A stretch of DNA of 5,831 nt from Nanopusillaceae archaeon (GTDB lineage: Archaea > Nanobdellota > Nanobdellia > Nanobdellales > Nanobdellaceae). The stretch spans positions 1 through 5,831 of the forward strand of contig JBMFJL010000037.1 in assembly GCA_049973735.1 (NCBI GenBank), written 5' to 3'. Of this stretch, positions 1,631 to 5,831 are shown piece by piece. A program made the position numbers and the translations under genes. The stretch's first letter is position 1. Each line of letters begins with the position of its first letter. The notes below the pieces were generated by a model. It was not told the origin of the DNA, searched no databases, and saw only the letters and a list, made by a program, of their open reading frames with translations.

Positions 1631-1810
1631 AACTAAAATTATAATAGAAATTATTAGAAGACCCATAGAATTTGATACAACTATTGGTATAGGTCCTATT
1701 AGCACAATTGCAGAGTACTTAACATTGCTGGATTGGGAAAAATAGGTTAAAATAAAAATTAGACCAATTATTATAAGTAAAATACCTAAAATAAGATATA
1801 GATTATTCAT
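1586..1810 (-). CDS. small two-TM membrane protein (from memory resembles archaeal DUF131/TIGR00304 family)
   Basis: The 74-aa ORF has two long hydrophobic segments (LYLILGILLIIIGLIFILTYF and GLLIISIIILVLLIIIFILFY). They flank a VLIGPIPIVVS loop that I recall as characteristic of DUF131. Its ATG overlaps the upstream gene's stop (ATGA at 1807-1810), indicating translational coupling. Family assignment was not verified by HMM. Confidence 0.6.
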   Translation of the reverse strand: MNNLYLILGILLIIIGLIFILTYFSQSSNVKYSAIVLIGPIPIVVSNSMGLLIISIIILVLLIIIFILFYKIII

Positions 1811-2076
1811 ATTAGTTTTAGTTTATAGAATTTTGAGTGTCCAAAATGTATTATCAGATCAAATCCATATTTATCCAAATATACTGGAATATCGCATCCA
1901 CCAAAATTTGATCCGAGCCATATGAATATCTGAATATCTTTATATCTACTTTTTATTTTATCGTAAATTTCCTTTGCGTATGGTTTTAATCCATCCGGCA
2001 ACTGTATAAGTATTTTTTTATATTTACCACTATCTAAAACTTCATATATCTTATCTAATTCAAAATCTATTTCCAT
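1807..2076 (-). CDS. dph2: Dph2 (2-(3-amino-3-carboxypropyl)histidine synthase, diphthamide biosynthesis), N-terminal fragment only; split gene or decayed remnant
   Basis: KKILIQLPDGLKPYAKEIYDKIKS..IQIFIWLGSNFGGCDIPVYLDKYGFDLIIHFGHS is collinear with the first ~85 residues of Pyrococcus horikoshii Dph2 (KRVLIQSPEGLRREAEELAGFLEE..IEVFLHGEINYGACDPADREAKLVGCDALIHLGHS). The ORF stops 9 codons after the GHS motif, whereas archaeal Dph2 is ~330-340 aa. Confidence 0.75.
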   Translation of the reverse strand: MEIDFELDKIYEVLDSGKYKKILIQLPDGLKPYAKEIYDKIKSRYKDIQIFIWLGSNFGGCDIPVYLDKYGFDLIIHFGHSKFYKLKLI

Positions 2077-2836: not shown

Positions 2837-3280
2837 CTAATTTTTCTCAATGTATTCAGAAAAATTTTTTATGCTCTCAAATATTTCTTTAATATCCTTT
2901 ATAGTTAATATTATTTCTCTATCAATTCCTTTACACTTTATTATCATAGACCTTCTAAACTCATTTTGTATCATAATTTCGCTATTTAAACAAACTCTTA
3001 AAGTTTTGTAATATTTAAAATAATCTTTTAGTTTATCATCTATTATACTAAGGAAAAGTTCGTATCTTTTTATCGGTGTATTCGGTATTTCATTTATATT
3101 ACCCTTTTCTTTTTCTTTTTCTAAATAATAATATATGACATAATCATAATAGTCTAAAACAGCCTTTATGAAATTCTTTATTGTTTCTAAACCCTTATTG
3201 TTTTTTAGTGAAACATTATATATATGTAATACTTCCTTTAATCTTCTCTTATACTCTAAATCTTCTACAATAGACCACAT
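2837..3280 (-). CDS. hypothetical protein, predicted all-helical, no family recognised
   Basis: The 147-aa ORF ends 2 nt before the MinD-like start codon, so it is in the same transcription unit. Composition and periodicity look like real coding sequence (heptad-like K/E/I/L/Y runs). A HEPN-like helical layout is only a vague impression, and no R-x4-6-H motif is present. Confidence 0.7.
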   Translation of the reverse strand: MWSIVEDLEYKRRLKEVLHIYNVSLKNNKGLETIKNFIKAVLDYYDYVIYYYLEKEKEKGNINEIPNTPIKRYELFLSIIDDKLKDYFKYYKTLRVCLNSEIMIQNEFRRSMIIKCKGIDREIILTIKDIKEIFESIKNFSEYIEKN

Positions 3281-3423
3281 GATATTAATAAATTTAAAGA
3301 ATATATGGTTAAAGCTGTAGCAATAGTCAGAATTATCAACTTATTTCTATCTAACAATATTTTTGATCTTCCCTTCCCAAATCTATACAAACCAGCATAG
3401 AAGAATGTAGGTTGATCCGGCAT
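3265..3423 (-). CDS. candidate small membrane protein (52 aa), below the cutoff of the supplied ORF track
   Basis: Hand translation of the - strand from ATG 3423-3421 gives MPDQPTFFYAGLYRFGKGRSKILLDRNKLIILTIATALTIYSLNLLISCGLL, with stop TAG at 3267-3265. It has a basic N-terminal part and one TM-like segment. An in-frame stop sits 2 codons upstream of the ATG. The 3' end overlaps the 147-aa gene start by 16 nt, like the other junctions of this block. No homology was recognised. Confidence 0.35.
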   Translation of the reverse strand: MPDQPTFFYAGLYRFGKGRSKILLDRNKLIILTIATALTIYSLNLLISCGLL

Positions 3424-3426
3424 AGA

Positions 3427-3438
3427 TTATATATTTTG
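3427..3438 (+). promoter_or_regulatory. candidate TATA box for the RNase P-like RNA gene
   Basis: TTATATATTTTG is centred about 27-30 nt upstream of the first G of the terminal helix (3461), which is the usual archaeal TATA-to-TSS distance. This is weak evidence because the spacer is A+T-rich throughout. Confidence 0.35.
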
Positions 3439-3460
3439 CTCGAAATAATTATTAATATAC

Positions 3461-3695
3461 GGGCGGCTGTCGGAAGGTCCACTTACCGATACGGCACCGG
3501 GGAAACCCGGAGGGAGAAATCCCTGGCAACATAAAGAGAAATCCAGGGCATATTACCGATGAAGATGAAGGGTTAAGGCCTGGAAGCAATTCCGGGCCAA
3601 CCTGGAGAGGTAATATGTACCTTGAGAAGTATGTCCTGCCGGTACAAGGTCCTCCGCTAAGAAATATATATACAAAAAGTGGCCTACAGCCGCCC
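3461..3695 (+). ncRNA. rnpB: RNase P RNA, unusually compact (about 235 nt, no P3 hairpin, reduced specificity domain)
   Basis: This is a G+C-rich island. There is a 10-bp terminal helix (GGGCGGCUGU / ACAGCCGCCC). CGGAAGGUCCAC at 3471-3482 resembles CR-I (GAGGAAAGUCC). ACAAAAAGUGGCCUA at 3672-3686 matches CR-V (E. coli ACAGAACCCGGCUUA) with the same length and spacing. AGG(U)CCAC pairs with GUGGCCU to form P4, leaving U3478 bulged. AGAAAUAU at 3660-3667 fits CR-IV (AGnnnnAU). Three GNRA-capped hairpins and G-U pairs fix the strand as +. Confidence 0.75.
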
Positions 3696-5378
3696 TTAAT
3701 AGCTTTTTCCTACATATACATAATATTTTGCATCATTACCACATACTATACATTTTTTATTGCTAGCTAATTCTGGTTCTATATCCGTTCCTCTCACATC
3801 TAAATTATAATTTTCTTTTAATTTATTTGCGCATTCTTCATTCATACAAAATGGAACCTTAAATACTACATTCTTATCTAAGTTTCTTTCTATTTCTTTT
3901 AAATCATCCACTTTTAATATCTTTTCCTCTAAATATTTCTTTGTTCTTTCTTTCATTTCGTTTTCATAAATTTCCACAACTTTTTCTATACCGCTTAATA
4001 AGTTATCCAATTGAAATACAAAACTTTTGGATTTTTCATTGTATTTTCTCATAGATACTGTTACAGAGTTTTCTTCAATTTCTTTTTTTCCTATCTCAAT
4101 CCTTATTGGCACTCCAATCTGCTCATATTGGTTAAATTTCCATCCAGGACTCTTTGTTTCATCTTTATCTATTTTTACGCGATATTTATCCTTTAACAAA
4201 TTATATACTTTTTCACAATATTCTATTACTTTTTTCTTTTCTTCTTCAGAATAATATATTGGAATTATTACTATCTGTATTGGTGCTATGCTAAATGGCA
4301 AAATTGCCCCCTTATTGTCACCATGTATACCAATAACTGCTGCAAGAGTTCTCATAGACAAACCAAAAGATGTTTGCCAAGCATATTTGTGTTTTTTCAT
4401 TTCCTTATTGGATATTTCTTTGATTTTATTTAATAAAAATTCTATTAATTCTTTGTTATCTTCCGATATTTCTTTATTTTTAATATTTAACTCTGCTTCA
4501 TAAATAATTTTTTCTTGATTTTCCTCTATCAATGATATTTTTACTTTATTATCTGTTATGGTTATTAAGTACTTTCCTCCACTATTATCATATGCTTCAA
4601 ATTTATTTTTGTCTATTTTTACAAATGGATGAATGTCTTCAAAAATTATCTCAAATGCTTTTGAGAAGTTTCTACCAAGTAAATGTGTTGTACCTATTTG
4701 TAAAAATCTTCCATCTGGCATTACTGTCTCTGCAGCAAATGTATAATCTGCACCAGCAAATTTATCCCATTCTGGTCTTTTAACCCATATATGTGGTATA
4801 CTTAGATAATCCCAAAATAGCTTTGAATATATTTCCATAGATTTTTTAATCATCTTTTCTGCGTCATCTAAATCTTTATGAACAGTATGAGCTTCATTCC
4901 ATAAAATTTCTCTACCTCTTATCAATGGTTTGGTAGCTTTTGTTTCATATCTATAGACTGTATTTGTCATGTAAGTCAACAAAGGCAAATCTCTATATGA
5001 TCTTATCCATAGAGAAAACATAAAATACATTTCTGTTTCTGATGTTGGTCTCAAAACATATTTAATTTCTTTTTCTTCTTCGATTGGCTTTGCTGGAGTT
5101 ACATAGAATACTTCTTTTTCAAATCCTTTTATATGCTCAGATTCTTTTTTAAATATCTCATATGGTATCAATATTGGAAACCAATATGGATCGAAGCCAT
5201 TTTTTTCCAATTCTTTTTCTAATAATGATAAAATATTTCTAATTAACCTATAACCATAACTAGTATAAACAGGCATACCTTTAACCGGATATCTATCATC
5301 TATTATCGGTATGGTTCTTACAATTTCATTATACCACTCTGAAAAGTTGCTATCCTTATTAATTTTGTCTTTGTTCAT
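3696..5378 (-). CDS. proS: prolyl-tRNA synthetase, archaeal/eukaryote-like type, with Zn-ribbon C-terminal domain and a ~80-aa internal insertion
   Basis: The sequence is collinear with Methanocaldococcus ProRS as I remember it: FSEWY, LRPTSET, YRYETKATKPLIRGREILWNEAHT (motif 2), RPEWDKFAGADYT, FSKAFEIIFE, YAWQTSFGLSMRTLAAVIGIHGDNKG (motif 3) and APIQIVIIP (anticodon-binding domain). It ends in the conserved terminal Tyr (GKSY). Four Cys residues (C511, C516, C543, C546) form a CxxxxC...CxxC motif. Confidence 0.95.
   Translation of the reverse strand: MNKDKINKDSNFSEWYNEIVRTIPIIDDRYPVKGMPVYTSYGYRLIRNILSLLEKELEKNGFDPYWFPILIPYEIFKKESEHIKGFEKEVFYVTPAKPIEEEKEIKYVLRPTSETEMYFMFSLWIRSYRDLPLLTYMTNTVYRYETKATKPLIRGREILWNEAHTVHKDLDDAEKMIKKSMEIYSKLFWDYLSIPHIWVKRPEWDKFAGADYTFAAETVMPDGRFLQIGTTHLLGRNFSKAFEIIFEDIHPFVKIDKNKFEAYDNSGGKYLITITDNKVKISLIEENQEKIIYEAELNIKNKEISEDNKELIEFLLNKIKEISNKEMKKHKYAWQTSFGLSMRTLAAVIGIHGDNKGAILPFSIAPIQIVIIPIYYSEEEKKKVIEYCEKVYNLLKDKYRVKIDKDETKSPGWKFNQYEQIGVPIRIEIGKKEIEENSVTVSMRKYNEKSKSFVFQLDNLLSGIEKVVEIYENEMKERTKKYLEEKILKVDDLKEIERNLDKNVVFKVPFCMNEECANKLKENYNLDVRGTDIEPELASNKKCIVCGNDAKYYVYVGKSY
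3704..3708 (+). terminator. oligo-T tract, possible terminator for the RNase P-like RNA
   Basis: TTTTT lies 9 nt downstream of the last paired nt of the terminal helix. Archaeal RNA polymerase terminates at oligo-T. The tract sits inside the last codons of the convergent proS gene (antisense of GKS). Confidence 0.3.
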
Positions 5379-5470: not shown

Positions 5471-5509
5471 TGAGCCTGATACTTAAGATGAGGGGTATGA
5501 AGGGAGTTA

Positions 5510-5831
5510 TATGGTCTCAGTAACCCGTCCGGTGGATGCCTTGGCTCGGGGGCCGAAGAAGGGCGCGGCAAGCTGCGAAAAGCCCGTGGGAGGTGCATGC
5601 AACCGTTGATCACGGGATCCCCGAATGGGATATCCTGCCGGTTTATCCGGCGTCCCGTAAGGGACGGGAACGCGGGGAAGGGAAACATCCTAGTACCCGC
5701 AGGAAGAAAAAACAAAATGTGATTCCCTCAGTAGGGGCGACCGAAAGGGGAATAGCCCAAATCGAATCCTCTGGAGTAATCCAGAGGAGATGTGAGGTAG
5801 AGGGGCGGGGGCTTTCCGTTATTATGCTTTC
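5510..5831 (+). rRNA. rrl: 23S (LSU) rRNA, 5' part; the gene continues past the right window edge; mature 5' end estimated to +/-20 nt
   Basis: GGTGGATGCCTTGGC at 5531-5545 matches the universal 23S 5' motif GGUGGAUGCCyUGGC. GAAGAAGGGCGCGGCAAGCTGCGAAAAGCC matches GAUGAAGGACGUGCnAAnCUGCGAUAAGC. CCCGAATGGG is present. GGAAACATCCTAGTACCCGCAGGAAGAAAA...GATTCCCTCAGTAGGGGCGACCGAAAGGGGAATAGCCC matches E. coli GAAACAUCUAAGUACCCCGAGGAAAAGAAA...GAUUCCCCCAGUAGCGGCGAGCGAACGGGGAGCAGCCC. Confidence 0.95.

Follow-up and report, generated by a model that had tools for sequence, protein, structure and literature searches.

The 5,831-nt contig JBMFJL010000037.1 of a Nanopusillaceae archaeon (GenBank assembly GCA_049973735.1; its full length is called the window here) carries on the forward strand, at positions 3461-3695, a 235-nt gene that in all likelihood encodes the catalytic RNA subunit of RNase P in its reduced Nanopusillaceae form. 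The assignment is based on a match to the archaeal RNase P RNA family of Rfam (RNaseP_arch, RF00373), on orthologues at the same genomic position, and on covariation of paired nucleotides. The RNA itself, its small size and the lack of helices P2 and P3 have all been published before and are not a new discovery. Our analysis adds a covariation test with 30 sequences, the observation that the specificity domain is intact with P15-P17 and P6 gone, the finding that the Rfam threshold misses most members of the family, and some sequence variants.

The whole window was scanned against Rfam 15, and region 3400-3760 was additionally searched with permissive cmscan settings. The whole-window scan yielded two matches, RNaseP_arch and the start of archaeal 23S rRNA at position 5508. 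The former covers exactly 3461-3695 (+), scores 85.6 bits (gathering score 84), spans the model in its full length (positions 1-288), and has E-values of 2.9e-23 in the whole window and 1.8e-24 in the local region. RNaseP_arch is the sole credible family match in the permissive cmscan of 3400-3760, where the signal recognition particle (SRP) RNA gave no match. An "Avashort thermometer" match to the same region (22.8 bits, E 0.035; gathering score 88) was regarded as occurring by chance. No tRNA genes are present in the window. The RNA forms a G+C-rich island (52% G+C vs 22-30% in the flanks), and its predicted folding energy has a z-score of -6.2 relative to shuffled sequence. An earlier note, made from the letters alone, had proposed a miniaturised RNase P RNA in this island and had named, among other checks, an Rfam comparison with SRP as a control and covariation in orthologous loci; the Rfam match above the gathering score at identical coordinates, together with the orthologues and covariation described below, bears the proposal out.

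The host belongs to the same family as the cultured Nanopusillus acidilobi and is related to Nanoarchaeum equitans, in agreement with the nanoarchaeote-like host surmised in the earlier note. The RNA gene adjoins the gene of prolyl-tRNA synthetase (ProRS), whose close relatives (63-75% identity) come from Nanopusillus acidilobi 7A, YN1, Candidatus Nanobsidianus stetteri (Nst1 and a single-cell genome) and Nanopusillus metagenome-assembled genomes. Two of these genomes are complete, that of the cultured Nanopusillus acidilobi 7A (CP010514.1) and that of Nanoarchaeota archaeon YN1 (AP031373.1). In 11 further genomes the RNA is situated between ProRS and a Sec61-beta-like gene, the family gene order being 23S rRNA, ProRS, the RNA, a small membrane protein, a protein of about 147 aa and a MinD-like ATPase. 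RNaseP_arch was identified by cmscan next to ProRS in the loci of ten of these 11 relatives, each time as a full-model match, with scores of 65-91 bits. Moreover, a metagenome scan with a 22-letter pattern taken from the 3' region of the RNA returned 30 loci, 20 of which contain the same RNA according to nhmmer (18 of them distinct), and nhmmer with the family alignment recovers all members. In the ProRS neighbourhoods of more distant Nanoarchaeota, namely Nanoclepta minutus and four other lineages (L015, L016, L018-L020), neither cmscan nor nhmmer detected an RNase P RNA, and the gene order around ProRS is not conserved.

As the window, a metagenomic contig, is short (5.8 kb), one might suspect a normal type A RNA with a deletion introduced during metagenome assembly or binning. 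However, the two complete genomes (CP010514.1 and AP031373.1), single-cell genomes and independent metagenomes all have the same architecture. Since all orthologues are 234-239 nt long (consistent with the small size of about 235 nt that the earlier note had remarked on) and have no P2/P3 sequence, such an artefact is excluded for practical purposes, its probability being close to nil.

Covariation was assessed in two sets, one of 12 genome-derived sequences (the window and its 11 gene-order relatives; 67-82% identity to the window RNA) and one of 30 sequences (29 distinct) that also comprises the metagenome members. The explicit structure was obtained by combining the Rfam RF00373 alignment with the family alignment. 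Compensatory changes on both sides are observed in 36 of 67 pairs in the smaller set and in 42 of 67 in the larger one, and in both sets 96.7% of pair cells are standard pairs. None of 500 shuffles matched the observed covariation and pairing values in either set, and sliding the 3' partners by 1-3 columns reduced pairing to 30-43%. The only helices devoid of compensatory changes are two invariant 2-bp elements (the P10 base and P15). For the other helices, the numbers of compensated pairs in the 30 sequences are 5/10 (P1), 3/7 (P4), 1/4 (P5), 4/4 (P7), 3/5 (P8), 4/5 (P9), 4/4 (the 4-bp segment of P10/11), 9/10 (P12 proximal) and 9/14 (P12 distal). Covariation in the helices, combined with strong conservation of the single-stranded functional regions, is what a functional RNA held under selection would show, and not a decaying pseudogene.

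The elements of the RNA are as follows (CR, conserved region; J, joiner).

3461-3695, forward strand: RNase P RNA gene, 235 nt, reduced Nanopusillaceae form.
3461-3470, forward strand: P1, 5' strand, GGGCGGCUGU; perfect 10 bp with 3686-3695.
3471-3474, forward strand: joiner CGGA (NGGA in the family), equivalent to J3/4 and the start of CR-I; it ties P1 straight to P4 at the usual place of P2/P3.
3475-3482, forward strand: P4, 5' strand, AGG(U)CCAC with U3478 bulged (CR-I); 3475-3477 and 3479-3482 pair with 3679-3685.
3484-3487, forward strand: P5, 5' strand; pairs with 3641-3644 (covariation).
3493-3496, forward strand: P7, 5' strand; pairs with 3637-3640 (covariation).
3497-3510, forward strand: P8 hairpin with a GAAA loop (RF00373 P8 alignment, covariation).
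3511-3524, forward strand: P9 hairpin with a GAAA loop (RF00373 P9 alignment, covariation).
3525-3533, forward strand: P10/11, 5' strand; 3525-3526 pair with 3635-3636 and 3530-3533 with 3630-3633 (RF00373 alignment).
3534-3545, forward strand: CR-II side, internal loop; aligned to ACAGAAACGAcA of RF00373.
3546-3556, forward strand: P12 proximal stem, 5' strand; pairs with 3610-3621.
3557-3569, forward strand: K-turn-like internal loop CGAUGAAGAUGAA, opposite GGAGAG at 3604-3609; aligned to the AuGAuGAU/cuGAgg region of RF00373.
3570-3603, forward strand: P12 distal stem-loop with a GCAA loop and an AA bulge.
3622-3629, forward strand: CR-III side, internal loop UUGAGAAG; aligned to aUGAAACG of RF00373.
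3645-3655, forward strand: J5/15 (3645-3647, CAA, CR-IV region) and vestigial P15 (3648-3655, GG-UCCU-CC).
3656-3678, forward strand: fused J15/2 and J2/4, a 23-nt single strand with the start of CR-V; the P2 3' strand is precisely deleted (RF00373 alignment).
3679-3685, forward strand: P4, 3' strand, GUGGCCU (CR-V); pairs with 3475-3482 (covariation).
3686-3695, forward strand: P1, 3' strand, ACAGCCGCCC; pairs with 3461-3470.

All five conserved regions, CR-I to CR-V, are present in the canonical order, aligned to the RF00373 consensus, and are largely invariant in the family. The perfect terminal helix pointed out in the earlier note is P1; in the orthologues its inner 8 bp are kept, with compensatory changes in 5 pairs, while the outer 2 bp are not conserved. 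The CR-I-like and CR-V-like segments recognised there by eye were recovered as well: GGAAGGUCCAC at 3472-3482 begins one base past the P1 5' strand, and ACAAAAAGUGGCCUA at 3672-3686 ends with an A that doubles as the first base of the P1 3' strand. Rfam places UCGGAAGGUCC on the consensus GAGGAAAgUCC following a 25-position deletion, and GGA of the joiner is invariant in the 12 genomes. P4 with its bulged U, likewise anticipated, is retained: none of the 12 genome-derived sequences breaks any of its seven pairs, and the 29 distinct sequences show pairing in 98.5% of cells. The A-to-G change in CR-I, proposed to be compensated by U-to-C in CR-V, indeed behaves as a covarying pair (G-C in 26, A-U in 2 and G-U in 1 of the 29 distinct sequences). 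P5 is paired in 100% of cells, its single covarying pair being a change from A-U to G-C in YN1.

Some metagenome members deviate in P4. In the divergent L033:8757-8991 (+), which has a 13-bp P1, A replaces the bulged U (GGAAGGACCGC); this may be a sequencing error, since the contig has ambiguous bases (X in translated open reading frames). Three closely related sequences (L047:6266-6499, L026:4036-4269 and L023:518-751) share an uncompensated U-to-C change, resulting in a C.A mismatch where their relatives carry U-A or C-G, and may represent an intermediate of a compensatory switch.

The specificity domain was described in the earlier note as reduced to a few short GNRA hairpins, and this does not hold. 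The hairpins in question are the ordinary P8, P9 and tip of P12, and all helices of the domain (P7-P12) are present and backed by compensatory changes. The helix 3549-3557/3609-3617, for which the note had suggested a covariation analysis, is the proximal stem of P12, with 9 of 10 counted pairs compensated. The CR-III side has 6 of 8 positions invariant in the 12 genomes, and the K-turn-like loop has 10 of 13 on the CGAUGAAGAUGAA side and 6 of 6 on the GGAGAG side. The GAUGAAGAUGAA/GGAGAG loop in P12 resembles a K-turn with tandem G.A pairs, and binding of L7Ae here is likely because the loop has tandem G.A potential and aligns with the archaeal K-turn region.

Thus, the shrinkage sits in the catalytic domain, the specificity domain P7-P12 being intact. 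In comparison to RF00373, a deletion of 25 positions takes away the whole of P3 together with the P2 5' strand and the inner P1 end, and the 6-nt P2 3' strand is missing as well. The lack of P3 stated in the earlier note is therefore correct and incomplete at the same time, as P2 is gone too. The 41-nt P15-P16-P17 insert of RF00373 is replaced by 4 nt, and J5/7 is shortened. The P6 pseudoknot, P16, P17 and L15 are absent, P6 because deletion of the P15-P16-P17 insert takes away any partner, and P15 is a 2-bp GG/CC hairpin. This stub is invariant, in contrast to its loop, which differs between members both in sequence and in length (4-5 nt). Together, J15/2 and J2/4 are roughly as long as usual and follow each other without a break; therefore the P2-P3 arm has been removed cleanly, with P1 directly beside P4. 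P2 and P3 are absent in all 30 sequences.

Across the 12 genome-derived sequences, the fused J15/2 and J2/4 strand (3656-3678) is unchanged at 17 of 23 positions, in contrast to the freely varying helices. It reads GCUAAGAAAUAUAUAUACAAAAA in the window and GCUUAGAAAAAUAUAUACUAAAA in most relatives. The fixed A/U-only stretch AUAUAUAC could be a protein, tertiary or dimer contact. The unusual invariance of the fused strand would also be expected if a separate small RNA, pairing with AUAUAUAC, provided the P2-P3 arm in trans, so that the RNase P RNA would be split; genes for tRNAs and proteins are known to be split in Nanoarchaeota (Podar 2013, PMC3655853). We consider this very improbable, as the chain is continuous from P1 to P4, with no break that would mark a split, and the deletion extends to the 6-nt P2 3' strand. 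Moreover, Nst1 has no split tRNA genes (Podar 2013, PMC3655853), and the RNase P RNA of yeast mitochondria is functional although it has neither P2 nor P3 (PNAS 2026, PMC12974513). No partner RNA was found, the motif being too low in complexity to be searched for in A+T-rich sequence.

Several observations weigh against the identification of this RNA as a functional RNase P subunit. Podar et al. 2013 called the Nst1 complex "partially degraded" and did not succeed in folding its RNA to a typical structure (PMC3655853). The Nanopusillaceae RNAs sit at the edge of the archaeal Rfam model, because seven of the 12 genome-derived members score 65-82 bits, under the gathering score of 84, and the obviously orthologous RNA of locus L009 (4191-4424, minus strand) has no cmscan match even at E <= 0.1, the latter probably having been lost in the speed filters. 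The gathering score is reached by four of the 12; Nanopusillus acidilobi (68.2 bits) and Nst1 (71.0 bits) are both below it. The loci under the gathering score or without a match are L005, L007, L008, L009, L010, L012, L013 and L017. The invariance of the metagenome members at ATATATAC..., 3665-3678, is partly built in, as the search pattern demanded it, and the 12 sequences found through gene order are the sole unbiased set for the invariance of the fused joiners. Finally, the function is assigned from homology and covariation, both transcript and activity being inferred.

Some of these observations would suit a decaying relic, that is, an RNase P RNA pseudogene, transcribed or not, which is non-functional and heading for a loss as in Nanoarchaeum equitans. 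A large share of the catalytic domain is gone, and POP5 has been reported as absent in Nst1 (Samanta 2016). However, at 67-82% identity 96.7% of pair cells are still paired and 42 of 67 pairs are compensated, the five conserved regions and the P4 bulge are kept, and the deletions are clean removals of whole helices that leave the joiners at full length. In addition, the upstream TATA element is conserved and the gene is kept in every family genome examined. A relic of this kind is accordingly improbable, and the RNA is best regarded as a probably working, though reduced, RNase P subunit.

Among the described RNAs, the closest is that of Nst1. Podar et al. 2013 found it with Infernal and reported it to be much shorter than usual, with no typical fold, and also identified three protein subunits in Nst1, in contrast to Nanoarchaeum equitans (PMC3655853). 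Samanta et al. 2016 noted the smaller Nst1 RNA along with the apparent absence of POP5, and suggested remodelling of the catalytic domain. The deletion of P3 and P2 "within Nanoarchaeales (Nanopusillaceae)" was stated in "Coevolution of RNase P and the ribosome" (PNAS 2026, PMC12974513), whose supporting information models the Nanobsidianus stetteri and yeast mitochondrial RNAs as examples without P2 and P3. The Nst1 RNA is an orthologue of the window RNA, with 80% identity, the same site beside ProRS, and no P2/P3 in either. The two differ in P1 (10 bp of other sequence in the window), P8 (5 bp instead of 4) and the P15 loop (4 nt instead of 5), and the window RNA is just above the Rfam gathering score, while the Nst1 and Nanopusillus acidilobi RNAs are below. 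By its host, its orthology to the Nst1 RNA and its lack of P2 and P3, the window RNA is thus a member of the reduced Nanopusillaceae group.

With type A RNAs (e.g. Pyrococcus; RF00373) it shares P1, P4 with the bulged U, P5, P7-P12, CR-I to CR-V and the K-turn region of P12. It differs from them in the absence of P2, P3, P6, P16, P17 and L15 and in length (235 nt vs the 288-position consensus); it has neither the P2/P3 helices nor the P15-P16-P17 module with the P6 pseudoknot that characterise this type. Type M, described by Harris et al. (2001), reportedly lacks P6, P16, P17, the bacterial-type L15 and P8, and is expected, like the window RNA, to depend on proteins. The lack of P6, P16, P17 and the bacterial-type L15 is common to the type M RNA of Methanocaldococcus jannaschii (252 nt) and the window RNA. 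However, type M keeps P2-P3, where Pop5 and Rpp30 dock (PMC6565675), and has no P8, while the situation in the window RNA is the reverse, with P8 present and covarying and P2-P3 absent. Type T (Thermoproteaceae, Pyrobaculum; Lai et al. 2010) is the other strongly miniaturised archaeal RNase P RNA, whose reduction is likewise tied to the loss of a protein subunit: the catalytic domain is kept and most of the specificity domain is lost, in association with the loss of RPP21 (Samanta 2016). It is a mirror image of the window RNA, which combines a complete specificity domain with a trimmed catalytic one.

Outside the archaea, the mitochondrial RPM1 of Saccharomyces cerevisiae resembles the window RNA in being functional without P2 and P3 (PMC12974513). 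It differs in being organellar, in having lost far more, and in having an unrelated protein partner. Most of the specificity domain is missing from RPM1.

The signals around the gene and its neighbours are as follows.

3427-3434, forward strand: TTATATAT, a TATA-box-like element that precedes the first P1 base by about 27-34 nt.
3704-3708, forward strand: run of five T, a candidate archaeal terminator signal, 9 nt past P1.
3696-5378, reverse strand: prolyl-tRNA synthetase, 560 aa, transcribed towards the RNA gene, with the stop codon directly at the RNA 3' end; the adjacency is conserved.
2837-3280, reverse strand: conserved hypothetical protein, 147 aa, two genes from the RNA in every family genome.
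3265-3423, reverse strand: 52-aa open reading frame with the N-terminal motif YAGLYRFGKG and a C-terminal hydrophobic helix, conserved beside the RNA gene.
5508-5831, forward strand: 5' end of the 23S rRNA gene (Rfam 15 match).

A TTATATA(T/G) element is present about 25-35 nt upstream of P1 in ten of ten orthologues inspected, while the remaining spacer differs, and 3427-3434 is likely the own archaeal TATA promoter of the RNA gene, with transcription starting at or near P1. A T run occurs within about 10 nt after P1 in seven of the ten orthologues, though its conservation is ambiguous because it overlaps the last ProRS codons (G-K-S) on the other strand. A scan for sigma-70 promoters and intrinsic terminators gave nothing useful, such signals not being relevant to an archaeon. 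The fetched loci contain four distinct tRNA genes, whose upstream TATA-like elements have no single fixed distance, four genes being too few to conclude; a fifth one, tRNA-Glu at the L050 edge, is of the same type as that of L037.

The RNA is probably transcribed from its own promoter at 3427-3434 and ends at or just after 3695. Covariation shows that it folds from P1 through the NGGA joiner into P4 with bulged U3478, P5 and the complete specificity domain, and past P5 it continues with J5/15, the 2-bp P15 stub and a single strand of 23 nt, most of it invariant. By homology, the CR-II/III module with P9-P11 would grip the elbow of pre-tRNA (T-loop/D-loop), and the core of P4, CR-I, CR-IV and CR-V would place Mg2+ and cut off the 5' leader. 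The activity is probably protein-dependent.

In the cryo-electron microscopy structure from Methanocaldococcus jannaschii, Pop5 sits on the P2/P3 junction and clamps CR-IV, and Rpp30 touches P2-P3 of both RNAs, making a dimer (PMC6565675); the earlier note had pointed to P3 as a Pop5-Rpp30 docking site, and the structure supports the relevance of this remark. Published surveys of Nst1 found RPP21, RPP29, RPP30 and L7Ae, while POP5 was not found (Podar 2013, PMC3655853; Samanta 2016). The loss of P2-P3 fits this reported absence, and probably no dimer bridged by (Pop5-Rpp30)2 would be formed. A holoenzyme without Pop5 and without a Pop5-Rpp30-bridged dimer is plausible because an RNA without P2-P3 coincides with Nst1 surveys without POP5. 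A more specific scenario, which we put forward tentatively and consider rather unlikely, is that the P2-P3 deletion went together with a real loss of POP5 and of the dimer, and that the fused 23-nt strand took over as a docking surface or active-site scaffold. The idea of such a joint loss of POP5 and P2-P3 was hinted at, not demonstrated, in Samanta 2016.

Several features of the neighbourhood are also conserved. In the Nanopusillaceae ProRS, a Lys/Glu-rich insertion of about 80 residues (~249-328) separates the catalytic core from the anticodon-binding domain, where the Infirmifilum ProRS has 3 residues. The 147-aa protein is family-specific and has 22 homologues, all named ones being from nanoarchaeal assemblies (one labelled Aenigmatarchaeota), is also encoded in Nanobdella aerobiophila (MJ1_0739), and has no significant Pfam match. 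Its AlphaFold model (pLDDT 89) is helical with a three-stranded sheet, and the best PDB matches are weak, to HEPN toxins (Foldseek E 0.03, TM ~0.5), and not Pop5-like. The possibility that this protein is a cryptic POP5 was considered and rejected, since the PDB search with its model gave neither Pop5 nor any other RNase P fold. The 52-aa open reading frame, judged by eye, looks like archaeal Sec61-beta (SecG), with no Pfam or NCBIfam match. No 16S rRNA gene is found in the 5.5 kb upstream of the 23S 5' end, where ProRS and the RNase P RNA gene are situated instead; hence, the rRNA genes appear to be unlinked, an arrangement conserved in the family.

Farther upstream, an 89-aa open reading frame (1807-2076, reverse strand) matches just the first 58 positions of the Pfam model of DPH2 (diphthamide synthase), in line with the split DPH2 gene that Podar 2013 described in Nst1 (PMC3655853). 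At positions 1-930, beyond a HAD hydrolase gene, the window contains the uL30 and uL16 (L10e) genes, where KM4331 and YN1 (L001, L002) have a MoxR-like AAA ATPase and a VWA protein; this difference is a local rearrangement within the family.

For annotation of nanoarchaeal genomes, the position of the family at the model edge means that annotation at the gathering score would skip most members, including Nanopusillus acidilobi, and pipelines may wrongly report "no RNase P RNA". This matters since the Nanopusillaceae are close relatives of Nanoarchaeum equitans, the one organism that has been reported to do without RNase P. The family indicates that the P2-P3 arm and P15-P17 are dispensable in a cell, while P1, P4, P5 and the specificity domain are under tight selection. 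Cultured Nanopusillus acidilobi and Nanobdella aerobiophila make the proposed joint loss of POP5 and P2-P3 testable. If true, the Nanopusillaceae enzyme would be alone among the known cellular RNase P ribonucleoproteins in working with no Pop5-type cofactor on the catalytic domain, and would be a living intermediate toward the RNase P-free state of Nanoarchaeum equitans.

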